Below are positions 8,047 through 53,892 of a DNA stretch of 64,000 nt, piece by piece. This stretch comes from an uncultured Poribacteria bacterium (GTDB taxonomy: Bacteria; Poribacteria; WGA-4E; WGA-3G), in NCBI GenBank assembly GCA_951813565.1, contig OX638351.1:2784001-2848000 (forward strand), written 5' to 3'. Position 1 is the stretch's first letter. Each line of letters opens with the position of its first letter. The notes under the pieces were generated by a model, which was not told the origin of the DNA, did no database searches, and was given only the letters and a program-made list of their open reading frames with translations. A program made the translations under genes and the position numbers.

Positions 8047-9525
8047 ATGGCGAGGTGGAATCGTAGCCTTACATCAACTTATCCGACTGGCGGGTTGATG
8101 CTCATCTATTTCGGTGTGGGTGTCTGCATATTGATATTAGTGTTTGCGTATTATACGCGCCAAATATCTCATTTGAATGCTGATATAGAGGCACAGATAG
8201 AAATCTTTGTGAACCTTGCCGCCGAATTGCCGAGTATTGAAGACCGTGCACTGCAAGCACGGCTGCTGAGAGTAATGCGGCAAGAACTTTATGCAGAGGG
8301 TCGATCTCGAAGGTTCTCTTTTATTATCACTGATGCCGATGGAAATGTAGAAATTTCGCAGGGAATTGACACTAAATTAGATGAGAAAGTCAACGAAAGT
8401 GACACTGTTTCGTTAACACAAGATGAGCAAGAATTGCTAACTTCAACATTGGAACGGATGAAAAGCAAGAATCAGCGGCGAAAAATTCCATTCCTTAAAG
8501 AAGATAGGCAGATTATGGGATATTTTTACTACGGGGATGCAAGTGAAATGGCACAACTTCCCTATGCAATTACTGATACCGAAAAGAGACCACAAAAATG
8601 GCAAATGTGGAAGGATGTCATCACCGCCGAGATTGCGACACCGGAGGAGAAAGAACGCGCAAAAATCTTCGTTCAAAATACACCAGCATTCGTTACACTT
8701 CAAACAGAACCCAATTGGCAAGAAGGTTACTTTTATTATGAAATAAAATCATTTTACGGGTTATTGATAACGCCTATTGTGCTGTCTATTATTTTACCGT
8801 TCTTCGCTTTTGGCTCTATTCTCATCTATCGGCGGATAAAATATTATGAACATGCGGCGATTTGGGGTGGATTAGCCAAAGAAACAGCACATCAACTTGG
8901 CACCCCTATCTCTGCTTTGTTAGCATGGACTGAGTTGTTAGATGAACGGAGTCAACAAACTGAAGATGAAGTACTTGCTGAGCTTTCAACAAACATGCAG
9001 AGTGACTTAGAACGGCTGCAGAAAACAACTACCCGATTCGGAATGATTGGCACGGAGCCAACGAAAACTGAGGTCAACCTTGAAGAAGTACTTGATGAGG
9101 TACTCACATATTTTGAGAAGCGATTACCTCAGATCAGTCGCAACATTGATATAAGTGTTACGCCTCATGATGTACCCGGAATTTCTGCGAATGCACATTT
9201 GTTACAGTGGGTTTTTGAAAACCTGATACGGAATTCGTTGGATGCCATGCATAAAGAGATTGGGCATATTGAAATTGAACCTCTTTATGATGACCGCCAA
9301 AAACATGTTGTAATCCGATATTCAGACAACGGCAGCGGTATTTCCAGCGAAAATCAACGTGCAATTTTTGAACCGGGTATGACAACGAAAACACATGGAT
9401 GGGGACTTGGATTGACAATTGTTCAACGAATTGTTAGGGAATATCATCACGGAAGTATCCGTTTAGTCGAAAGTAGTCCAGATGGGACAACTTTTGAAAT
9501 TCGCTTGCCGTGTAATACCTCTTAG
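8047..9525 (+). CDS. Membrane sensor histidine kinase
   Basis: Two TM segments, ETAHQLGTP H-box, ENLIRNSLDA N-box, DNGSG and GWGLGL G-boxes. Confidence 0.92.
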   Translation: MARWNRSLTSTYPTGGLMLIYFGVGVCILILVFAYYTRQISHLNADIEAQIEIFVNLAAELPSIEDRALQARLLRVMRQELYAEGRSRRFSFIITDADGNVEISQGIDTKLDEKVNESDTVSLTQDEQELLTSTLERMKSKNQRRKIPFLKEDRQIMGYFYYGDASEMAQLPYAITDTEKRPQKWQMWKDVITAEIATPEEKERAKIFVQNTPAFVTLQTEPNWQEGYFYYEIKSFYGLLITPIVLSIILPFFAFGSILIYRRIKYYEHAAIWGGLAKETAHQLGTPISALLAWTELLDERSQQTEDEVLAELSTNMQSDLERLQKTTTRFGMIGTEPTKTEVNLEEVLDEVLTYFEKRLPQISRNIDISVTPHDVPGISANAHLLQWVFENLIRNSLDAMHKEIGHIEIEPLYDDRQKHVVIRYSDNGSGISSENQRAIFEPGMTTKTHGWGLGLTIVQRIVREYHHGSIRLVESSPDGTTFEIRLPCNTS

Positions 9526-11380: not shown

Positions 11381-12931
11381 ATGGAGAAGGAGATACTTAT
11401 TTCTGATGATGAGTTTGAAACACGTTGTGCAGTTCTTGAAAAAGGAATATTAAATGAAATCCAAATTGAGCGAAAAGCGGTAAAACCTGTCTTAAATAAT
11501 CTATATAAAGGACGTGTTGAGAATGTGTTACCGGGTATGCAAGTGGCTTTTGTTGATATCGGATTAGAACGACATGCTTTCCTACACATTTCGGACCTGA
11601 AATATAACAATAGTACTGAGAACGGTACACCAGATGACGGGTTACCAATTTTAGATTTACAAGCAACACCATCAAAAAAACCACGTGGCGGCAGGGGATT
11701 CCCATATCTTATAACTGACCTCATTTCTAAGAATCAGGAACTTCTTGTGCAAGTCGGCAAGGAGCCGATTGGCAGTAAAGGTGCACGTGTTACAAGCAAC
11801 ATTACCCTTCCAGGACGTTATGTTGTCTATTTGCCGAATTCGTCCACGATTGGGGTTTCGAGACGGATTGAATCTGAAACTGAGCGTGACCGATTGCGTG
11901 ACTTAGCACAAAACTTGAAAGCTGACGTCGAGGGCGGTTTTATTATTCGGACAGCTGCTGAAGGTTTGAGCGAAGATGAATTTGCCGCAGAAATCCGAAA
12001 CTTGATCAATCAGTGGAAACAAGTACGCGAACGTGCCAAACGAAAAACCGCACCAAGTTTAGTTAGTAGAGACGTGAGTTTCACGAATCGGATTGTTCGC
12101 GATATGCTTACTAAAGATGTTAAACAGCTTCTAATTGATTCACAATCCGGTTATCAGGAAACAGTTGATTATGTCACATCTGTTATGCCGAACATGCTGG
12201 ATCGAATAACCCTTTACAATAAAGACACCGCCCTTTTTAAGGCTTATGGTGTAGAGGAAGAACTACATCGAGCACTGAGCGAAAAAATCTGGCTCAAGTG
12301 TGGTGGGCACATTATCATCCAGCAAACTGAAGCGATGGTCTCAATTGATGTCAACACGGGACAGTTTGTCGGTAAATCCGATCCGGATAACACAATTTTA
12401 AGTGCAAACCTTGATGCTGTTGATGAAGTGGTCCGACAAATTCAGTTGCGCGATTTAGGTGGTATTATCGTTGTTGACTTTATTGACATGGACGAACCTG
12501 CACATCGGAAACAGGTTTTCAAAATACTCCGGGAGGCACTGCGCAAAGATAAAGCACGCACGAATATCCTTCATTTTTCAGATTTAGGGTTGGTGGAAAT
12601 GACGCGCCAACGTACACGGCCGAGTTTATCTACTTTGCTCACAGAACAATGTCCTTACTGTGAAGGACACGGGACCATTTTGTCAATTGAAACTGTTGTG
12701 ATTGGATTGCTCCGAGCAATTAAGGCTGCATATCGCAAAACTCGGCAATCCAAATTACGGATTATCGCGAATGATCACATTGTTTCGCATCTCAACGCGC
12801 AGATGTCCGCCAAATTCCGTGAACTCAAACGAAACCTGAAACTTGAATTGACCCTTGAACCTGATGCAGACCTGCATCTTGAAGACTATCGAATCTTTGC
12901 TGCAAACGGTGAGGAACTGTTTTTAGATTGA
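11381..12931 (+). CDS. rng: Ribonuclease G (Rne/Rng family)
   Basis: YKGRVENVLPGMQVAFVDIG S1 domain, KEPIGSKGAR, IDVNTG, DFIDM, CPYCEG. Confidence 0.92.
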   Translation: MEKEILISDDEFETRCAVLEKGILNEIQIERKAVKPVLNNLYKGRVENVLPGMQVAFVDIGLERHAFLHISDLKYNNSTENGTPDDGLPILDLQATPSKKPRGGRGFPYLITDLISKNQELLVQVGKEPIGSKGARVTSNITLPGRYVVYLPNSSTIGVSRRIESETERDRLRDLAQNLKADVEGGFIIRTAAEGLSEDEFAAEIRNLINQWKQVRERAKRKTAPSLVSRDVSFTNRIVRDMLTKDVKQLLIDSQSGYQETVDYVTSVMPNMLDRITLYNKDTALFKAYGVEEELHRALSEKIWLKCGGHIIIQQTEAMVSIDVNTGQFVGKSDPDNTILSANLDAVDEVVRQIQLRDLGGIIVVDFIDMDEPAHRKQVFKILREALRKDKARTNILHFSDLGLVEMTRQRTRPSLSTLLTEQCPYCEGHGTILSIETVVIGLLRAIKAAYRKTRQSKLRIIANDHIVSHLNAQMSAKFRELKRNLKLELTLEPDADLHLEDYRIFAANGEELFLD

Positions 12932-13201
12932 TCTCGGAATAGCATAAATTCAACATAAAAAGTCCGAGTTAGTATTACATTTTATATTTATAAAGAAGAC
13001 TCATAATCCTTCAAAAAGACTTGACTTTTGATGTGAAATGTGGCATCATGTAATTATCCGAATTACAAACATGGGCGGATAGGTGCGTCCAAGGCTCTCG
13101 TTACACGTTCCCTATAACATGTCTGAATAGAGCATAAAATTAAAAGATAGAAAATTCCTTTGATTCTAATGGATTTCTACACCTAAAAGGAGTGAAAGTA
13201 A

Positions 13202-37933: not shown

Positions 37934-38060
37934 AGGTACCCACTACCTAAAGGTAGGGGCTTGTGCTTCCTTGCGACTGCGGTTTTCTCAGAGAGTTGAC
38001 CGTCTTATTGTCGCTCCACTTTAGGCAGCCAAGCCTGCCTGTTTGATATTGATAGCAGCA
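37929..38060 (-). ncRNA. Putative TnpB omega/reRNA scaffold at the element right end
   Basis: Position 3' of tnpB including the right-end hairpin; boundaries inferred from family knowledge. Confidence 0.5.
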
Positions 38061-39133
38061 TTGATGTCTCTGTCGTGGTGTGAACCACATTCGGGACATG
38101 TCCACTGTCTATCTGCGAGAGAGAGTTCTTTGTTATGGTATCCACAATCACTACAAGGTTTTGTTGTTGCTATCCATTGAGAGATTTGCACAAGTTTTTT
38201 GCCGTGCTTCGCACACTTCTGTTCCAATATCTGAAGAAACTGGTAGAAAGAATGGTCAGAAACTTTACGTCCCCATAATCGTTTCATACCGTCAAGGTTC
38301 AGCGTTTCCAAAATGAGTGTGTCAAACTCTACACAAAGTTTTGAGGCAAGTTTCCATTGCCAATCTTCTCTTTGTCGGGCAACTTTTCTGTGTTGCCTTG
38401 CTAAAGCACGGCACGCACGATAATAGTTGTTAGAACCTTTGACTTTACGACTGAGTGCTTTGTTGAGAGATCGCAACGTGTTGAGTGATTGTTTGAAAAA
38501 CTGCGGAGATTGTCCCTTGTTGCCTTCGTCGCTTGTGAGGAACGTTTTGTTTCCGTAATCAAATCCTGCGCTCTTACCCGTCTTGGGTTTGGGTTCGGAA
38601 TCCTCAACATTCTCGCACGAAAAGCATATCCAATAGTCACCGCACCTGTCACGTTTGATCGTGATCGTCTTGATGACACCTTTGATTTCACGGTGTTTGT
38701 GAAAGGAAAACCATGTATCTATACAGTTGATTTTGATACGGTTATCTTCAAGTTTGTAGCCCGCTTGTGTGAAGGTCATGGAGTTGTATTTGTGTCTCGG
38801 TTTGATTTTCGGTCTACCCACTTTACGCGTTGTTTTGCCCGCTTTTCGGTCTTCGATATTCTCAAAGAAAGCGTCTTGAGATTTACCATAACGTAGGACA
38901 ACGTCTTGAACAACTTGACTCGGCAAGTCCGCCCAGTGTGGTTTAGTTGTTTTTTTGAGTTTCGCAACATGTGCCTTCAGACGATACGCAGACAAATTTT
39001 TGCCGAACATGCGATAATACCTACGTGCCAAACGCATGATATGTAGATGGATTTCCCACATATCATCAAGCATATTGCCGAGTTTGATTGTGTTAGATTG
39101 GTGTTGAAGTTTGAACTTGTGAGATTTTCTCAT
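38021..39133 (-). CDS. tnpB: RNA-guided endonuclease TnpB
   Basis: RuvC-I GFDYG, RuvC-II LETL, zinc finger CSDCG...CPECG, RuvC-III RDINAAINI. Confidence 0.93.
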   Translation of the reverse strand: MRKSHKFKLQHQSNTIKLGNMLDDMWEIHLHIMRLARRYYRMFGKNLSAYRLKAHVAKLKKTTKPHWADLPSQVVQDVVLRYGKSQDAFFENIEDRKAGKTTRKVGRPKIKPRHKYNSMTFTQAGYKLEDNRIKINCIDTWFSFHKHREIKGVIKTITIKRDRCGDYWICFSCENVEDSEPKPKTGKSAGFDYGNKTFLTSDEGNKGQSPQFFKQSLNTLRSLNKALSRKVKGSNNYYRACRALARQHRKVARQREDWQWKLASKLCVEFDTLILETLNLDGMKRLWGRKVSDHSFYQFLQILEQKCAKHGKKLVQISQWIATTKPCSDCGYHNKELSLADRQWTCPECGSHHDRDINAAINIKQAGLAA

Positions 39134-39230
39134 TGTCCACTTTGACCTTCAATATAGTCTTTTATCACTTCAAGAGTTACACTGTAGTATGATATATTAT
39201 ACCACATTGTGATTAGATTGAAAAGTATAT

Positions 39231-40320
39231 CAGGACTTACGCAGTCTTGAAGATTATTGAAGGATTTGAGAGTTGATGTCGTAAATAATCGTCCAATAAG
39301 CTATCTTTAAGCTCATAAATTGTTCTACCAACTGCACGGGCAGTGCGTGTCAAACAGACCCATACTTGAAAACAACACGCAATATGATTTCTTTGCGCAC
39401 GCAACTTGCGACATTGACATTTACCAATACCAGTGACTTGTTTGATCTCACGATGAAATTGCTCAATCTTCCAACGCACTTTACATTCTTGGATTGTGGC
39501 ATCCGCATCTGATTGAGATAAATCGTTTGTAGCGATATATACCTTGTGTCCGTTAGAGGACGCTATCCGGAACAACTTCACTTGATGTCCATTTGGAAAC
39601 TTATTGATGTGCACGCGTTTTCCTTGTCGTATTTCTGTTTGGGTCCAACATAAATCTTGGACTTGTTGGTGTTGTTCAACACCATCCGTATCATTGACAA
39701 GACGATTACGCTTGAGAGGCACATAGTAAATCTTGGAAAGTTTTTCAATCGCTTTGATGACTTTCATTGACGCATACCAAGCATCCATGAGCACAGTCCG
39801 AAACGGGAGTTGTTTTTTCAAGTAGACATTGTGCAACATTTCCAGTAAATGGTCTATTTTGGTTTTACCATCATGATCTTTGTCAAAAATACGATAATCA
39901 ATGATCCAATATTCTTGCGTCTTTGGATTGACATAAAGACACGTGACAATACCGATGCCTACAACGACTTTTTTGTCGCTACCACTCCATTGAGAACGAA
40001 GGGCTTCAATCTCTTTGGCATGGAGTTTAGGAAGCACAAAATCATCAAAAACTATGTATCCTTCATCATCATACTCAATGTCATCCTTTACGGATTGCCA
40101 GAGTTCGCTTGAAGAAATGTTTTCATTTCTCAAGAAACGATTGAGTTGATCGTGGCTCCATTTTTCTGTCTGAGCAGCAAAGTAGGTTTGTGTCCAATTC
40201 GTGAAACTTGCTATCAAAAACTGACAATAATCGGAAAATAGGTTTTCCTTCTTTTGAGAGTGGGAAAATGTAATCATAATAGAATAGTATACACCATTTT
40301 ATAAAAATGCGTAAGTCCTG
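39231..40320 (-). mobile_element. IS701-like insertion sequence, 1090 bp
   Basis: 13-bp TIR CAGGACTTACGCA/TGCGTAAGTCCTG; 7-bp TSD AGTATAT at 39224-39230 and 40321-40327. Confidence 0.88.
39237..40277 (-). CDS. DDE transposase (IS701-like)
   Basis: IVFDD, IDYRIF..DGKTK, VLMDAWYA, RWKIEQFHREIKQ. Confidence 0.9.
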   Translation of the reverse strand: MITFSHSQKKENLFSDYCQFLIASFTNWTQTYFAAQTEKWSHDQLNRFLRNENISSSELWQSVKDDIEYDDEGYIVFDDFVLPKLHAKEIEALRSQWSGSDKKVVVGIGIVTCLYVNPKTQEYWIIDYRIFDKDHDGKTKIDHLLEMLHNVYLKKQLPFRTVLMDAWYASMKVIKAIEKLSKIYYVPLKRNRLVNDTDGVEQHQQVQDLCWTQTEIRQGKRVHINKFPNGHQVKLFRIASSNGHKVYIATNDLSQSDADATIQECKVRWKIEQFHREIKQVTGIGKCQCRKLRAQRNHIACCFQVWVCLTRTARAVGRTIYELKDSLLDDYLRHQLSNPSIIFKTA

Positions 40321-43738: not shown

Positions 43739-44755
43739 TTAGGGATGTAACGCTGTTTTAACACCGCGTTGCGCGATAGCGTTATCAAAAGCTTCTAAAC
43801 CTTGTGAAATGGAAAACTGATCGGTTAGCAAAGGTTTGAAATTGATTGCTTCTTGTAGTAGGAGCTGGCGGGATTCTTGAAGGCTTGCTCGGGAAAATGC
43901 CCACGAAGCCATCAGTTTGTGTCCGGTATAGTGAAATTCTTCTAAGTTTATGCGAAGTTCCTCACCTTCCGGCGCAAGACCGAAAAAGTTGATACAACCG
44001 CCTTTGCGTATAACCTGAAAAGCGAGGTTAATCACTGACGTTTTATTTGTCGTAGCGGAGATGACGGTATCAACACCGCCGTGGGTGATTTCATGGAGAT
44101 GTGCAACATTGTCAGGAGAAATATCAAAAGCGGCATCGGCCCCGACAGTTTCTGCGACAGATCTGCGGTAGGGTAGAGGGTCCAGAACGTAGGTTGCTAA
44201 ACCTGCTCGTTTCGTCAATTGGGTGAACATCAACCCGATGGGACCAGCACCGAGGATGGCAACAGTGTTTTGGAAAATGGTTTCTTGCATCGCATTTAGG
44301 CAGCAGCCTAACGGTTCAAGGAAAAGTAGTTCTTCTGGTGGGATGGTGTCTGGCACTCGGATGAGTTTGCCCGTGTCTATGCCGTGTTTCGGCATCCGCA
44401 TGTATTCGGCGTAGCCGCCATCAATGTCGTGTCCGATACCTTCAATCGTATCGCAGTATTTGTCTTTGTCATTTCGGCAATGCACACAACTCCCGCACGA
44501 AAGCATCGGATTTACGGTGACCCGTTCGCCGACTTTTACTTCCGGATGCCGACTCTCAACGATTACACCTGCGAGTTCATGTCCCATCACAACAGGTGGT
44601 GAATAGTCTGATATATCGCCACGGAGCGCAGCAAGGTCAGATGCGCAGATACCGCACAACTCCATCTTGATAAGCACATCCCCGGCATTGAGTGTGGGAA
44701 TTGGTTTGTCTTGTATGCGTAACTGCTGAACTTTTTCAAAAACGATTGCTTTCAT
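43739..44755 (-). CDS. Zinc-dependent (MDR) alcohol/sugar dehydrogenase
   Basis: CGICASD, GHELAG, CGSCVHC...C, GAGPIG; start MKAIVF at ATG44755, 7 nt after the iscB stop. Confidence 0.92.
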   Translation of the reverse strand: MKAIVFEKVQQLRIQDKPIPTLNAGDVLIKMELCGICASDLAALRGDISDYSPPVVMGHELAGVIVESRHPEVKVGERVTVNPMLSCGSCVHCRNDKDKYCDTIEGIGHDIDGGYAEYMRMPKHGIDTGKLIRVPDTIPPEELLFLEPLGCCLNAMQETIFQNTVAILGAGPIGLMFTQLTKRAGLATYVLDPLPYRRSVAETVGADAAFDISPDNVAHLHEITHGGVDTVISATTNKTSVINLAFQVIRKGGCINFFGLAPEGEELRINLEEFHYTGHKLMASWAFSRASLQESRQLLLQEAINFKPLLTDQFSISQGLEAFDNAIAQRGVKTALHP

Positions 44756-44762
44756 ATACGTT

Positions 44763-46319
44763 CTACGCAACCAATGGGCAGTTTACGATGCTATAACTAT
44801 ATCCATCGCGCTTTTGAATTCTTCGGATTTCGGTAATATTTCCAGATTTTCTCGAATCTTTCTCTTCAGGTGCAAAGTATTCTACGCGAAGTTTACGAGG
44901 TTTGCCTACTGCGGTTTTATCAAAACAGTTGATTATCCCTTTCCATTTCCGATCTCGCTTTGTTATCTCAACGTAGTCAAACTTCGCAAAGCCATTTACA
45001 TGCGAAACCTTAGTTGATGGTTTGATGAAACCGGGTGCTTTCATGTCAAATATCTTGCCTACATTGTCGCGTCTACCATATCCTTTAGCTTCAATGATAG
45101 CAACTTGCAGCGACTTAGCTCGTTTCGGAACAATCGCAACAGACGCAGCATCATAATAATGCGTTTTCGGCAATCTGGCAAGATTCCGATGATGTGCTGT
45201 TTTTCCACCAGTGCCACTTATTATTGGGAGCCCTGTTGTTTTGAGTGTCTCAAACAGTTTCCACCGAATAGTGTTGATTGCTGCAGCATCAGAAAGACCC
45301 TTTTCAGATTTTCGGGCTGCTGCTTGGACCTTCTTTGCAAAATCAGTACCAAGCTTTTCTTCCAACTCGGCTCCGTGCAGTTTACCTTTCTTTTCGTTGC
45401 AGTCTTTACATGCCATCGTCAAGTTGCTCGGACGGTTATCTTCACGAACGGCTTTAGGTGCGATGTGTTCTACTTCTAAATGACGTTTGCCTTTTCCACA
45501 ATAAGCGCATTTTCTGCCAGTCAGTTCTAAAAGATATTCGCGTATCTCACGTCCCCATAAAGTTCCTTGTTGATATTCAATGCCATGTATACCAGGATTT
45601 TCCATCAACTGCATATCAAATTTCACCGTCTCAATTGCCAATTGTGTAATCGGGTAAATCTTACATAACCGTCGGGTCCAGGTCTCTAAATTGAAAACAC
45701 GGGACATCAAACTCGGTGCCACCCAACCATTATCGGCGACCCGTTGATGCACAACGCGAATGCGTCGCCAGCGTTTCTTTTGACGCTTGTTCGTTTTGGT
45801 GTCAGGTAAACGCTCCCAACGATACCGCTCGTCTAAAAACATCGCTTTTGACACGCGATTCAAGTCATTTTGAGATTTACTGGAATCCATTCCCTCTGGC
45901 ACTGAAGCACGTTCATATCTCCATCCGTTTTCTGTAAGAATTGGCACTTGACGTTTCCGATTTGCCCACCGAGCAGGACGATACCGTAGATTACGAGTTC
46001 TACGTCCTCTACGAAAGCCCGAACGTTTTTGAAGATTTCTTTTGATTTGCTGCCCACGGTGATGTAATTCCGCAGCATAGACTATATCCCCAGATTCAGA
46101 CACAATGGCGATTCCACTGATGCGTGATCCCGGGTCCCAACTCAACGTATACGGTTTTGTGACAATTTCCGATTCTGGAACTGCTTTCTTAAGAATAATC
46201 GTAAACGGGTATTTTCGCCATATTGCTGCTTCACCGCGTTTCAGTAGACGACGTGCTACAGCAGGATGACAAGGTTCTAAAGGGTTTTTGTCTGTATCAA
46301 TAACTGCTACTTTTGACAT
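44763..46319 (-). CDS. iscB: CRISPR-associated IscB (OMEGA RNA-guided RuvC+HNH nuclease) with REC-position insertion
   Basis: PLMP-like N-terminus (NPLEPCHPAVARRLLK...PFTI), RuvC-I WDPG (D62), bridge helix RRGRRTRNLRYR, RuvC-II IETVKFD (E230), CAYC...EH(285)I...NL..AC..CN HNH, RuvC-III THYYDA. Confidence 0.93.
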   Translation of the reverse strand: MSKVAVIDTDKNPLEPCHPAVARRLLKRGEAAIWRKYPFTIILKKAVPESEIVTKPYTLSWDPGSRISGIAIVSESGDIVYAAELHHRGQQIKRNLQKRSGFRRGRRTRNLRYRPARWANRKRQVPILTENGWRYERASVPEGMDSSKSQNDLNRVSKAMFLDERYRWERLPDTKTNKRQKKRWRRIRVVHQRVADNGWVAPSLMSRVFNLETWTRRLCKIYPITQLAIETVKFDMQLMENPGIHGIEYQQGTLWGREIREYLLELTGRKCAYCGKGKRHLEVEHIAPKAVREDNRPSNLTMACKDCNEKKGKLHGAELEEKLGTDFAKKVQAAARKSEKGLSDAAAINTIRWKLFETLKTTGLPIISGTGGKTAHHRNLARLPKTHYYDAASVAIVPKRAKSLQVAIIEAKGYGRRDNVGKIFDMKAPGFIKPSTKVSHVNGFAKFDYVEITKRDRKWKGIINCFDKTAVGKPRKLRVEYFAPEEKDSRKSGNITEIRRIQKRDGYSYSIVNCPLVA

Positions 46320-46329
46320 TTTTTATCCG

Positions 46330-46580
46330 TGGATGTTGAGATACCCGAAAGCACCTCAACATCCAAAGCTCGCCTTGCGGCGGTAATGTGAGCCTCGTCA
46401 ATGTTATTTCTGCTTTATAACAGGGTTGACAGCGTATTGTAAAGCTGTTTACATTGCCCCGACAGCGCTCCCGGCTGGCTCATGTACCTGGAGGTGTCTA
46501 TATCAGAAATAACGGATTTAATGTTTCCAACCCATAAAGGCTTGACTAGATACCACTTGGGCATGTTTTTTGTTGCAATT
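46330..46580 (-). ncRNA. omegaRNA/HEARO-like scaffold with a 5' tracrRNA-like anti-repeat
   Basis: Minus strand has anti-repeat TTGCAACAAAAAACATGCCCAAGTGGTATC, then HEARO-like motifs (CCGTTATTTCTG...GACACC...TAAACAG...CAGAAATAACATTGACGAGG...CATTACCGCCGCAAGGCG) and a terminal UUCG-capped hairpin. Confidence 0.82.
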
Positions 46581-46673
46581 TTTGCCGTCAACCTCCCAGC
46601 AAAAATGCAAGATTGGAGGTCGACTGCAAACTCTTAAGACTGACGCTTGACGCAGCTTGACTTTAAGTATAGG

Positions 46674-48445
46674 GTTGCAACTCAAACATGCCCAAGCGAT
46701 AACTGCTATCTTCAGCAAGTATCTGACCTTCCTTTTGGGCAAGTTGCAACTCAAACATGCCCAAGCGATAACCTTCAAACGTGTGCGAAAGGCGTTCAGC
46801 ATCTTTTTCGTTGCAACTCAAACATGCCCAAGCGATAACTCTGGTCTGCTGCTTCGTTTATAATGTCCTCAATAGCGTTGCAACTCAAACATGCCCAAGC
46901 GATAACTTATTTAAACGCATATCAAAAATGATAGCACTAAAAGTTGCAACTCAAACATGCCCAAGCGATAACTTGTTCAGCGGATATATCATCACTGGAT
47001 TTGACGCGTTGCAACTCAAACATGCCCAAGCGATAACACTATTCTATGAGACATTTGAGATAAAGCAAAAATTGTTGCAACTCAAACATGCCCAAGCGAT
47101 AACGTTTACCCCTCCGTTTTGCCTCACCAGTGACATCTACCGGTTGCAACTCAAACATGCCCAAGCGATAACTATGTGATGCCGCAATCTCCCAAGATGT
47201 TGGACTTAAGTTGCAACTCAAACATGCCCAAGCGATAACTTTCGATCCTGAAATACCATATGCTTGGGAGCGTGAGTTGCAACTCAAACATGCCCAAGCG
47301 ATAACGCGCGGACCGGCTTTGGTGCGTTCCGCTAATCCGTGATGTTGCAACTCAAACATGCCCAAGCGATAACTTCGGCACATACAACCCTGTAGCACCA
47401 CCTGTCTCGCGTTGCAACTCAAACATGCCCAAGCGATAACACAGAAGGCTTAGACGATTACATGAAACTCAAAAGTCGGTTGCAACTCAAACATGCCCAA
47501 GCGATAACCGAGAAGTAACGTGTGTTATCATTTTCATCTTTCCAGTTGCAACTCAAACATGCCCAAGCGATAACATGTAAAACACCCTTGACTGTCTCAG
47601 GCGTAACCAAGTTGCAACTCAAACATGCCCAAGCGATAACGAAGTACCAAGACCACGCTGCGCAAGATTGCCAGCAAAACGTTGCAACTCAAACATGCCC
47701 AAGCGATAACTTCGGCTGGGGTGATGAAGTATATCTTCAAGGAGTTAGTTGCAACTCAAACATGCCCAAGCGATAACATGGGCAATCGCAGTATCATCAA
47801 AACACTTGAGTTTGTTGCAACTCAAACATGCCCAAGCGATAACTCAGCTGTCCTTTTTCGTTTGCGATGTTGATGCCAAGTTGCAACTCAAACATGCCCA
47901 AGCGATAACGAAAATCGGGGATATAGTCGTAGCGCAAACAGAAGCGTTGCAACTCAAACATGCCCAAGCGATAACTGAGATTCTTTCTTGGGCAAATGAT
48001 GATAAAAATTCGGTTGCAACTCAAACATGCCCAAGCGATAACTCTACGGAGTCTGCACCTATAAATTGTGCGTAACGGTTGCAACTCAAACATGCCCAAG
48101 CGATAACAAAGATCGTCACCACAGGATTTAACAGCAAGGTCAAGGTTGCAACTCAAACATGCCCAAGCGATAACGTATTGGATTGCTCACGGGATTGTCC
48201 GATGCAACGCAGGTTGCAACTCAAACATGCCCAAGCGATAACCACCTCTGCTTTCACTGTAATTATTTTCTGTTTGGTGCGTTGCAACTCAAACATGCCC
48301 AAGCGATAACTCAAAACTTCGTTTAGCGACTTCTTTACTTCAACGCTATGTTGCAACTCAAACATGCCCAAGCGATAACCTATGAAAGCCATCGTTTTGA
48401 AAAAATCCATCAAGTTGCAACGCCAGCACGCTTAAGTGATATAAC
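46674..48445 (-). CRISPR. CRISPR array: 26 identical 30-bp repeats + 1 degenerate repeat, 26 spacers of 34-40 bp
   Basis: Repeat (+) GTTGCAACTCAAACATGCCCAAGCGATAAC from 46674 to 48379; degenerate copy GTTGCAACGCCAGCACGCTTAAGTGATATAAC at 48414-48445; minus orientation inferred from G-U pairing with the anti-repeat. Confidence 0.98.
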
Positions 48446-48449
48446 ATAC

Positions 48450-49478
48450 TTACTCAAACTCATAAGGCACTGTTTCGGACTGATGTGTCTTTGAGGATTT
48501 TTCTGCCAAATCCATGATGGCAATGACACGGCGAGCGGACTCAGGTGTCACGAGCAATGGGGTGCCATCGTTCAAATGCGCAACTATATTTTCATAGTAT
48601 CTGGGTCCGGGTCTTCCGTGATGACCTACTTTCTGTTCCTTCGGATGCCCTTCAACTTCGGATAAAACATGATATTGTCCGCCTTCAGAAACAATAGATC
48701 CGTGTGAACCGAGCATTTTCCATTTCGGTCCGCCGACCTTCGCGATGTTAGACATCTGGATGTTTGCTGACGCACCATCCGCAACAAATTCCCCTTCTGC
48801 AAATCGAATAATAGCTTGCACGTGGTCTTCGTTGGTAATGTCTTTCCAAACAAGGTTCGGCTGAAAGAAGCCGGTGACGTTAATCATGGGTGCTTCAAGA
48901 ATGTTAAGCAGCCAGTCAAGGAAGTGTGCGCCCCAGTCATAGAATTGTCCGCCAGAAATGGCTTTGACGCTGCGCCACCAATTCGGGTTCGGTCTGCCGT
49001 AGCCGCCACCCCACATCTCGGCACTATAGACTTTTCCGATGACACCAGACTGAACAAGTTCGCGGAGCGTCCAGAAGTCTGCGTCCCAACGGCGGTTGTG
49101 GTGAACTGATAGCATCACATCATTTTCTTTTGCAGCGGTAATCATTTCCGTTGCTTCTGCAATTGTGACGCACATCGGTTTTTCAACGACAACGTGTTTA
49201 CCTGCATTGTGGGCTGCCACAGTCGGATCGCAGTGTAGACTGTGCGGCAGGACGTTCGCGACGAGATCAACATCTTCGTCTGCTACGAGGTCTTCAACGG
49301 AGTTGTAAGTTCGGACGTCGGGAAAATCCTGTTTGGCTGCCTTTGTCCGCTCTGGATCAATGTCGCACACTGCAACGCATGTGATGCCTTCTGTGCCTTG
49401 CATCATATTTGCGTGTGCTTTACCCATATTAAATGCTGCCCCATAACCGAGAACAGCACCTTTAATAATATCTGCCAT
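48450..49478 (-). CDS. Gfo/Idh/MocA family oxidoreductase
   Basis: AVLGYG, GKHVVVEKPM, HHNRRWD, GG.FYDWGAHFLD. Confidence 0.92.
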   Translation of the reverse strand: MADIIKGAVLGYGAAFNMGKAHANMMQGTEGITCVAVCDIDPERTKAAKQDFPDVRTYNSVEDLVADEDVDLVANVLPHSLHCDPTVAAHNAGKHVVVEKPMCVTIAEATEMITAAKENDVMLSVHHNRRWDADFWTLRELVQSGVIGKVYSAEMWGGGYGRPNPNWWRSVKAISGGQFYDWGAHFLDWLLNILEAPMINVTGFFQPNLVWKDITNEDHVQAIIRFAEGEFVADGASANIQMSNIAKVGGPKWKMLGSHGSIVSEGGQYHVLSEVEGHPKEQKVGHHGRPGPRYYENIVAHLNDGTPLLVTPESARRVIAIMDLAEKSSKTHQSETVPYEFE

Positions 49479-50286
49479 TATATGTTTGGCTCCTTCTGTG
49501 CGTGGGGTGTTACCCCGATTTCAAATTTTATGAATATCTTATTATAGCATAGATGCGGGGGTGTGTCAAAAATTAAATTGAACAAGGCAGAGGCATTCAA
49601 TTTTCGTCTAATTATCCGTTTTAGTTGAAAAGTTGGGACCTAAAAATCGTTCCGAGATGCACGAATTGATTGTATTTTTCTTCTCATTTTATTGGAATCA
49701 TCTCCTTAAAAAGTTACCATACGGTAACTTTTTTCATACCGTGGTAACTTTTTGAAATTCTCTATAAACTCAGTATATGTAAGGGTTTATAGACATTTTA
49801 TTTAAATTTTATATTTTTCATCTGCGTTGATGAACACAGGTTTCCTTTTGCTGGAGATATTTTATTTTCCTAAGTTTTGCGTTGTCGTCTTGGCATTAGA
49901 GAGTTACTTTCGATTTTCGGTGTGTTTGGGGATCGGTTTTCTCTTTTCATACTGATATTATACCAAGTTCTATGGGGTGATCAGAAGTTTTCGTGGTGTT
50001 AAGAACAATAGATATCCAATAGATTCACAATAAGTTTGCAGGAAAAGTTGGGGTTGATACGTTCTTTTTGCATCTTGGATGAGTGTGTTTTTTGTTGTCA
50101 GCATGGCGGTTGACGCGATTTTTTGCAGTTTTTGTAAAGGAAGAAATTATTGGAGAATTGAATGGCTTTGTGGAAAAGGTCTTAAAATTGACAAACGCTT
50201 AGAGATAGTCTAAACTATTACCACTTTTTAACACGCTTTTACCATAAAGACATATCTTCGGATTAAGTAGTAGATAGGAGGCAACG

Positions 50287-52484: not shown

Positions 52485-53892
52485 CGCAATAAGTAGTTTT
52501 GGACTTTCAAAAAGCCCTTAAGCGTTATGGAAATTTATACTTAATAGGGTATGAGAATTCGGAAAAGCACTAAACGGCGAAGACTAATTTCTAACTCTAA
52601 TCTGCGAGAACTTCTGCCCCTCCACCTCACATCGGTATAAAAGTTGAGCGCGCTTGATAGATACTTTGCAACGGCAGACAATTCTTCTAATCGTTTTGCC
52701 GTTGTGATATGAGTGTGGTCCAGCTTGTCAAGACCTTATTCTCTAAGTTCTTCTGCCATCGTTGAGTGAGTCTTCATCTCATACTCTCATTGACAAACTT
52801 ATCAAAAATGCTCTCAATGTTCCTATAGTTGTATTTATAGCACGCCTCTGCGACATATAGGGGCGTGTATTCAGTCCAATAGTGGTGATGACTTCCATAC
52901 CAAGCACGTTTGAGAAGTGACCAGAAGCCTTCAATCGTATTGGTATGGACATCACCGTCAACAAATTGTTCTTGATGATCAATGATATGGTGCTTCATCT
53001 CTTTACCGAGTGTGAGATAAGCCTTATACTCATCAGTCATCAACTGCGATTTATCTACTTTAACAACTTCGCGAATAAAATTTAAGATAGTCCGTCCCGT
53101 CAAATCTTTTGCGAGTCTTGCCACAACTTTCCCACCGCGTTCAATCGCTCCGATGATAGCATCTTTATCAGTGCCACGCCCACGCTTAGCAGGATCCCTG
53201 TCCTCTTTTTTGTTCGCTTTGCGAGGTTTACCCCCGACATAAGTTTCGTCAGCCTCTATGATACCTTGTAAGAGGATATTATCTTTAGCCATTTCAGCAC
53301 GGATGCATGTTCCCATACGCCACGCAGTCTTTTGATTCAAGTCCAAATCTCTTGCCAACTGATGACTTGAAAGACTCTTTTTAGCATTCGTCATCAACGA
53401 GATAGCCAAAAACCACTTCTGAAGTGCTATCTTTGTCCCGTGAAACACCGTGCCACAAGTAACCTTGAAAGTAGCAGTGCAATCGTGGCATTGCCAGCGC
53501 CCGATGCGTCCCAATTCCGTTTCTGTTCGTCTTGCAACGTTTGGGCAATCACAATGTGGACACTTCGGTTTACCCTTCCACCGAATACTCTCTAAATGTT
53601 CAATACAACTCTCTTGATCAGGGAATCGTTCCATCACTTTCAACAAATCCATCAGAAAACTCCTTTTTAGGAGTTGCTTTTTCTGACAGGTTTCTGATAC
53701 AATAATTAGATAAGACAGAATGCCAGAAAAGCAACTCGCTTTTTTGTGTTCAATTAGGGGGTTAGCAGCCCTCTAATTTCTTATCTAAATTGTATCATAT
53801 TTTCACAATTAAAACAAGCGAAAAATGTAGTCTACACAAGGATTTAGAGCGATTTTTAAAATTTTGTTGAAAGTCCAAAACTACTTATTGCG
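52485..53892 (-). mobile_element. IS1595-family insertion sequence, 1408 bp
   Basis: Perfect 26-bp TIR CGCAATAAGTAGTTTTGGACTTTCAA; 8-bp TSD TTGAATAA at 52477-52484 and 53893-53900. Confidence 0.92.
52774..53652 (-). CDS. IS1595-family transposase
   Basis: N-terminal zinc ribbon CPHC...CHDC, EADETYVGG, TDEY, HTNTIEGFWSLLKR. Confidence 0.93.
   Translation of the reverse strand: MDLLKVMERFPDQESCIEHLESIRWKGKPKCPHCDCPNVARRTETELGRIGRWQCHDCTATFKVTCGTVFHGTKIALQKWFLAISLMTNAKKSLSSHQLARDLDLNQKTAWRMGTCIRAEMAKDNILLQGIIEADETYVGGKPRKANKKEDRDPAKRGRGTDKDAIIGAIERGGKVVARLAKDLTGRTILNFIREVVKVDKSQLMTDEYKAYLTLGKEMKHHIIDHQEQFVDGDVHTNTIEGFWSLLKRAWYGSHHHYWTEYTPLYVAEACYKYNYRNIESIFDKFVNESMR

Follow-up and report, generated by a model that had tools for sequence, protein, structure and literature searches.

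A small IscB locus with a CRISPR array lies in a 64,000-nucleotide (nt) stretch of DNA from an uncultured Poribacteria bacterium (contig OX638351.1, positions 2,784,001 to 2,848,000; hereafter the window). The terminal spacer of its array matches the start of the neighbouring gene, adh, next to the junction at which the module stands in place of the DNA of an empty allele. That this spacer is a homing or retention guide, directing IscB to cut empty alleles and spare the filled one, is given an even chance. The fuller model, in which the module is a transposase-free, CRISPR-spacer-guided homing element that uses host type I-B adaptation through an inverted leader and converts empty alleles, including those of congeneric species, is held more tentatively, somewhat short of even. 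G000 denotes the genome carrying the window; L, X and P numbers and the other G numbers label loci, sequencing runs, protein clusters and genomes.

The terminal spacer matches the start of adh

43739..44755, minus strand: adh, a Zn-dependent alcohol dehydrogenase-family gene (Pfam ADH_N and ADH_zinc_N) with its ATG at 44755; orthologues align from the same ATG
44723..44757, plus strand: protospacer-like site spanning adh −2 to +33, from the alignment to spacer 48380-48413
48380..48413, minus strand: the oldest (leader-distal) spacer, which matches the adh start
48414..48445, minus strand: variant distal repeat, of an older type that looks by eye like the lone repeat at related loci L147 and L150

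Between the spacer and minus-strand sequence 44757-44723, 28 of the 35 aligned columns agree, exactly as a first-pass annotation of the window had claimed; a 1-nt gap falls in a T run. That annotation had also placed it beside the only degenerate repeat, and a single copy among the 27 repeats is indeed non-identical. This variant repeat lies 5' of the terminal spacer, and the repeat on the 3' side of the guide is of the normal kind. Against the filled allele the guide meets mismatches at 44757 (position 1) and 44747 (position 11), the 1-nt gap, and four differences distal to the target-adjacent motif (TAM).

The match is genuine, and it is to an orthologous allele. The spacer scores 21 in local alignment to the two 500-bp flanks, whereas the best of 1841 control spacers reaches 16 and the best of 20,000 shuffles 15. 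In G000 the adh start is its top non-self match, yet a weak one in that genome alone (E 0.013). A search of related genomes with the spacer, the check proposed for the orthologous-allele claim, bears the claim out: the spacer matches 27 of 111 other family genomes at E <= 0.01 (E 6e-7 to 4e-3), and all 27 matched loci hold the adh start, at 28-32 of 34 nt and mostly better than G000's own allele. The 3' 16 nt of the guide match perfectly in congeners G012, G023 and G052, where the flank is AG. That the similarity arose by chance, or that the spacer was directed at an adh paralogue on a phage or plasmid, is thus largely refuted and very unlikely: the null tests and the 27 genomes matched at one gene start argue against it, as do 50,697 phage and 72,556 plasmid records that yield nothing better than E~1 and IMG/VR, which holds no exact 27-mer of the spacer. 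In its favour are the A/T-rich sequence, the weak E-value in its own genome and the sparse sampling of sponge phages.

The spacer resembles the alleles of other lineages. In a tree of 40 adh sequences, computed with the protospacer region excluded, G000 falls in a clade of six rows (support 96/94), all with GTY at codon 9. The spacer carries ATC at this codon, as do most of the sister clade and genus g13, which points to another lineage as its source. Together with the older-type variant repeat, this codon suggests a spacer that is old or foreign in origin, yet one that marks the insertion site.

Empty and filled alleles at the insertion site

44757..48450, minus strand: the whole module, 3694 bp, in place of 79 nt of the conspecific empty allele (joint 44756 to 48451 in runs X4, X8 and X9)
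44758..44763, plus strand: ACGTTC, the module-derived 3' (TAM-side) flank of the filled allele, beside junction 44756/44757

Four of 16 listed sequencing runs (X1, X4, X8 and X9) were compared with the window. X1 is filled; X4, X8 and X9 hold the joint 44756 to 48451 with 79 other letters, and X4 holds both alleles. Filled and empty alleles coexist within one species, and the 79 bp that the module replaces are almost exactly the intergenic stretch between gfo stop and adh start. The predicted insertion with real empty alleles is thereby borne out, as is the placement of the guide's 3' end at the junction, from which it lies 1 nt. The empty allele had been reconstructed as a direct gfo-adh fusion with the TAM ACTTAC; since the conspecific empties carry 79 other bases, the fusion does not hold and that TAM loses its support. 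ATGAA at the adh start was considered as a TnpA-type TAM and rejected, the empty site not being scarless.

The uninterrupted arrangement prevails in the genus. Among 39 other genus genomes, none matches the window IscB at E <= 1e-20; 36 have an adh hit, and in all 29 of the loci fetched from them the gfo end lies directly upstream, across 76-516 bp of intergenic DNA.

The geometry of the X4 contigs bears on the sequence of the empty allele. A shared contig ends at 44746, and a filled and an empty contig both start at 44717, the latter being 656 nt long (537+79+40). Two contigs with a common 30-nt overlap must, by graph logic, diverge at the next base, so the alleles should differ at 44747; the joint 44756 to 48451 places a further difference at 44757. 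Contig geometry, rather than read letters, thus implies that the two alleles part at 44747 and 44757, and within the 3' 19 nt of the guide the filled allele mismatches nowhere else. In both X8 and X9, two unlisted differences apparently lie within 44726-44756, the last 31 nt (binomial p 0.004 and 0.009), a placement and p values that rest on an interpretation of where the difference table's end cut-off falls; one of these differences could be a new mismatch to the guide. X4 contains no contig across the terminal spacer, a gap that is uninformative on the spacer's presence.

Mismatches at positions 1-14 abolish cleavage by OgeuIscB (PMC9640706, partial text). For this reason the filled allele, with mismatches at guide positions 1 and 11 and a different flank, is probably immune to cutting, in line with the sparing that the annotation had foreseen.

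In a related locus, L014 (G023), DNA identity to G000 is 92% for gfo and only 75% for adh, which suggests recombination at the gfo-adh operon.

A candidate target-adjacent motif

46907..46942, minus strand: spacer matching a phage-like contig at 36/36 (G148:C3 and IMG/VR record L250), with 3' flank TGC or TGG on the guide strand

At least one spacer of the array therefore matches a phage-like contig, and the flank of this protospacer, TGC or TGG, is the inverse of N-C-A. Matches of G000 type I-B spacers show 5' TCA (two matches, with 1 and 6 mismatches). In Clostridioides difficile the type I-B system uses CCA or CCT (PMC4556805, partial text), the inverse of which would admit an AG flank. AG adjoins the adh target in 10 of the 15 closest relatives, while the filled allele has AC, the beginning of the ACGTTC flank that the annotation had read correctly. 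These flanks point, thinly, to A/T-G as the 3' TAM of this IscB.

Further targets were sought. No additional protospacers were found for the arrays of L139, L141, L140 and L146 (2-4 candidates scored per genome), and none for the window array in phage records. The search with the G000 I-B array returned other arrays and no targets, and a repeat-motif scan of IMG/VR gave six stretches, none of them an array within 220 bases around each match.

An inverted type I-B leader

46584..46627, plus strand: palindrome like a type I-B leader, in opposite sense to the IscB transcript and 46 nt from the first repeat

G000 encodes a type I-B and III-A cluster with Cas1b and Cas4, whose 30-nt repeats and spacer-length range are like those of the IscB array. 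Apart from itself, the IscB leader region matches only the I-B leader in G000 by blastn (E 1.6e-6). In 11 of 13 IscB arrays the palindrome lies between array and anti-repeat, in opposite sense and at a distance of 46 nt to the repeat; of 30 fetched I-B loci, 12 have it 75-89 nt upstream of the first repeat. In G109 one 37-nt spacer is common to the I-B and IscB arrays, reverse-complemented and with one mismatch. The loci behind these two observations are window 46584-46627, G000:C1 ~1201379-1201442, L146 and L372. The leader's position and the inverted spacer suggest that new spacers probably enter at the iscB-proximal end, in which case the adh spacer would be the oldest one. The type III-A cluster of G000 also includes a Csm2 fused to a cold-shock domain (L190:12244-12894).

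Architecture of the module

On the minus strand the promoter comes first, then gfo and the variant repeat, then 26 spacers and as many identical repeats of 30 nt; a conserved non-coding stretch and iscB follow, and finally adh, which begins 7 nt past the iscB stop. The remaining features are as follows.

44763..46319, minus strand: IscB, 518 aa (NCBIfam guided_IscB, 356.6 bits against a cut-off of 175; Pfam RRXRR and HNH)
46320..46549, minus strand: omegaRNA-like scaffold, conserved in 10 aligned loci and labelled from its position and resemblance
46550..46579, minus strand: anti-repeat, from its pairing with the repeat
46674..48379, minus strand: body of the CRISPR array, 26 identical 30-nt repeats with spacers of 35-40 nt
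48450..49478, minus strand: gfo, a Gfo/Idh/MocA oxidoreductase gene whose stop codon is 4 nt from the variant repeat
49541..49569, minus strand: perfect sigma70-type promoter, by consensus match only

The locus has the sequence hallmarks of a CRISPR-associated IscB, an OMEGA system with a RuvC/HNH IscB, an upstream array and a repeat/anti-repeat non-coding RNA (ncRNA). Residues D62, E230, H285, N299, N308, H387 and D390, assigned by motif as the putative RuvC and HNH catalytic residues, are invariant in an alignment of 13 sequences, the window IscB and its homologues; by this measure the catalytic motifs appear intact. The repeat:anti-repeat duplex is predicted at −38.3 kcal/mol on the minus strand and −31.8 on the plus strand, values that carry no null comparison. 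An Rfam search of the window gave zero hits at the gathering threshold, the omegaRNA-like region included. The module is best read as a small, mobile, Cas1-less CRISPR-IscB immune cassette directed against phage. It holds no tnpA or other transposase gene, iscB being its sole gene; 10 Y1_Tnp hits lie elsewhere in G000. Near the module are a TnpB/IS605-type open reading frame, a DDE transposase and an IS1595-family transposase (window 38021-40277 and 52774-53652).

A search for the sigma70 consensus found no promoter at the array's own 5' end, and gfo, array, iscB and adh are probably one operon driven from the promoter at 49541..49569. Promoter-like sequence is seen by eye at the distal repeat of several other IscB arrays and is lacking in G000. 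Spacer and target within one predicted operon, and a target spanning the start codon, recall regulation: IscB might bind the mismatched filled allele without cutting, in the manner of small CRISPR-associated RNA (scaRNA), CreR or TldR, or antisense spacer RNA might dampen adh translation. The guide:adh mRNA duplex of −32.8 kcal/mol (again given with no null comparison) would fit, and a Neisseria scaRNA binds a 5' untranslated region (PMC13431127, partial text). Such a regulatory guide is nonetheless improbable. IscB keeps its nuclease motifs, the differences of the filled allele from the empties lead away from the guide, relatives do without the module entirely, and the inferred TAM has been lost from the filled allele, whereas IscB binding peaks share the TAM (10.1101/2023.03.14.532601, partial text).

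Related IscBs occur in several other settings. The homologue at L047 is 73% identical; a metagenome scan found only distant IscBs (best segments 33-54% identical), and a viral scan with P0003 found no close homologue. A viral scan with the IscB alignment gave 33 loci, of which only L373, a single-repeat member on a virus-classified record, belongs to the clade of the window IscB. At the one- or two-repeat loci L147, L150, L149 (G112, G100) and L373 the repeat directly abuts other sequence; the L147/L373 repeat closely follows a start codon in a virus-classified record and is flanked by two similar copies of ~80 bp. These loci possibly represent a pre-array stage. Solo or near-solo IscB-type repeats at L194:4516-4545 (G043), L193 ~9062 (G129), L195 ~8645-8675 (G022) and L359 (G055) suggest relics or stand-alone repeat units; blastn found no further module part near those of L194, L193 and L195. 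L148 (G079) combines an IscB that has an ordinary RNA upstream with a 37-nt repeat array on its downstream side, at ~12404-13175. The IscB of L151 (G113:C159) has a different 37-nt repeat, and spacer 4 of that locus agrees at 27/28 with the end region of a TnpB-like element, identified by eye, that lies 1.9 kb upstream.

Homing weighed against an autoimmunity scar

In the proposed cycle, a minus-strand transcript would give spacer-repeat RNAs that pair with the anti-repeat/omega scaffold. Host type I-B Cas1-Cas2-Cas4 would insert new spacers at the antiparallel leader, and this orientation would turn a 5' protospacer-adjacent motif (PAM; N-C-A/T-like) into a 3' TAM (A/T-G). The oldest spacer would guide IscB to cut empty alleles at the adh start, the filled allele being spared through two mismatches in the seed and the loss of its TAM. 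The filled copy would then serve as repair template, which would spread the cassette to empties, or block its loss, as a homing endonuclease does and with no transposase involved. Such a guide would be an acquisition of one lineage and not a family-wide strategy. For homing speak a match far above null, the empty arrangement at 29/29 genus loci, the conspecific empties and the inferred seed differences. The phage flanks TG, the filled flank AC and the relatives' AG add to these, as do the sensitivity of OgeuIscB to mismatches at positions 1-14 and a codon 9 from another lineage in a spacer that nevertheless marks this site. Of the interpretation first offered, the orthologous match, the real empties, the position at the junction and the apparent immunity of the filled allele stand; the reconstructed TAM and a family-wide privilege do not.

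The strongest competitor is an autoimmunity scar or founding accident with no present role, a real possibility though well below even. The first-ever spacer would have happened to come from neighbouring adh, of self or congener DNA. Self-cleavage would have selected an intergenic deletion up to the protospacer together with seed substitutions, or a break would have taken up the module once, and the spacer would persist only because trailer spacers are rarely lost. The replacement of 79 bp, a junction where the protospacer ends and the differences in the seed follow just as well from this history, and it agrees with the coexistence of both alleles in X4. Less easily accommodated is a spacer like the alleles of other lineages and unlike the G000 clade, which calls for spacer-site linkage through a change of host or for a very old spacer; the 3' 19 nt are also still perfect in three congeners. 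Moreover, if the empties carry a usable TAM, such a history yields a working drive anyway.

A number of findings weigh against homing, three of which also favour the scar: the decay of the spacer, its isolation among other arrays and the presence of both alleles in X4. The spacer has suffered a 1-nt deletion and one private substitution, both outside the 3' 19 nt, a placement expected about 1-in-5 by chance. The TAM is based on one protospacer in two variants and two I-B matches, and if it is strictly TG the relatives' AG flanks would escape cutting. The base differences of the empty allele are deduced from contig geometry, and depths of ~20 and ~18 for the two alleles in X4 indicate no sweep in that sample.

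The isolation emerges from the wider family. Of 175 other genomes of the phylum, 19 have IscB homologues at E <= 1e-30; 12 of the 20 regions fetched have an array upstream of iscB and represent 8 independent sites. None of these 8 has a distal spacer matching its own flanks, and the orthologous sites fetched for 5 of them are likewise without a match (for L146, the downstream gene only). On present data the site-matching spacer is therefore lineage-specific, contrary to the privileged spacer, conserved in homologous arrays, that had been envisaged. No second species with the module at the gfo-adh site was found, and close IscB homologues (86-90%) have at least five different C-terminal tails, which suggests that they sit at other sites.

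The distal spacers of L139 and L142/L143 gave no convincing host match in five genomes each. A score of 16 for that of L139 was dismissed as an A/T-rich chance match, and a G000 match of L142 spacer 1 proved to be a repetitive extragenic palindrome (REP) insert and not a target, the REP-like repeat being abundant in G000. L142 spacer 2 and L143 spacer 1 represent a diverged distal spacer common to G150 and G173 at the same site, for which no host target was found. At L047:6780-6815 the distal spacer is antisense to the ribosome-binding site and ATG of some gene; no target was found in five genomes or in the family search.

Relation to known systems

The comparison draws on partial texts of the sources cited (further literature: PMC10734277, PMC10691335). 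DelIscB (PMC12660989) is likewise an IscB preceded by an ncRNA that contains spacers, repeats and an anti-repeat, without cas1 or cas2. The window module differs in its 26 spacers, its I-B leader inside the repeat/anti-repeat loop and its inferred A/T-G TAM, in place of NAC. The available description of DelIscB is silent on a host-site spacer and on array growth. No title or abstract opening was found that describes, for a CRISPR-IscB locus, a spacer aimed at the insertion site or an I-B leader in inverted orientation, and PMC8929163 with its supplements may describe such loci.

Donor-joint targeting by IS200/IS605 IscB and TnpB (Meers et al., 10.1101/2023.03.14.532601) follows the logic proposed here: the empty site is cut, the filled copy serves for repair and the filled site is spared. 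In that family the guide is the element's own flank and excision is scarless, whereas the guide of the window module comes from its array: an acquired spacer bounded by repeats, 3.6 kb away from the target and on the opposite strand, with no tnpA in cis and with 79 bp replaced. The module thus has neither a scarless empty site nor a guide formed by its own flank.

With the homing spacers of CRISPR-associated transposons (CASTs; Petassi et al., 10.1101/2020.07.02.184150; PMC11300857) the module shares a terminal, mismatched, leader-distal spacer beside a diverged repeat that matches the chromosomal gene at the insertion site, and a dependence on another CRISPR system for adaptation, which is inferred for the module. 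It differs in lacking Tn7-like transposition machinery and a nuclease-deficient effector, its nuclease motifs appearing active. The CAST analogy drawn by the first-pass annotation therefore holds for terminal position and insertion-site target and fails for the guide's 3' repeat, which is normal, and for conservation across the element family. The module can be regarded as akin to both donor-joint targeting and CAST homing spacers and as a member of neither.

Guides of the scaRNA, CreR and TldR kind share with the module a partial self-match near a gene start, but the module has intact nuclease motifs and a full-length array spacer, and the resident flank, AC, lies outside the TAM, itself inferred. 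Homing endonucleases of introns and inteins insert so as to disrupt their recognition site, spread by break repair and leave flanking reading frames intact. The module likewise leaves its neighbours' frames intact, would resemble them in the first two respects under the proposed model, and differs in being RNA-guided, intergenic and equipped with an anti-phage array.

Significance

Homing and an autoimmunity scar differ mainly in whether a usable TAM is present in the empties. It has been proposed that CRISPR-associated IscBs are intermediate between the selfish nucleases of IS200/605 elements and Cas9 immunity, and here one array appears to combine anti-phage spacers with a spacer against the empty insertion site. 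The locus would thus offer a test of whether selfish homing has been kept in a nascent class 2-like system. It may also bear on how a Cas1-less IscB array grows, through an inverted I-B leader that would convert a 5' PAM into a 3' TAM, in a clade of ~60 compact IscB clusters with a possibly short TAM.

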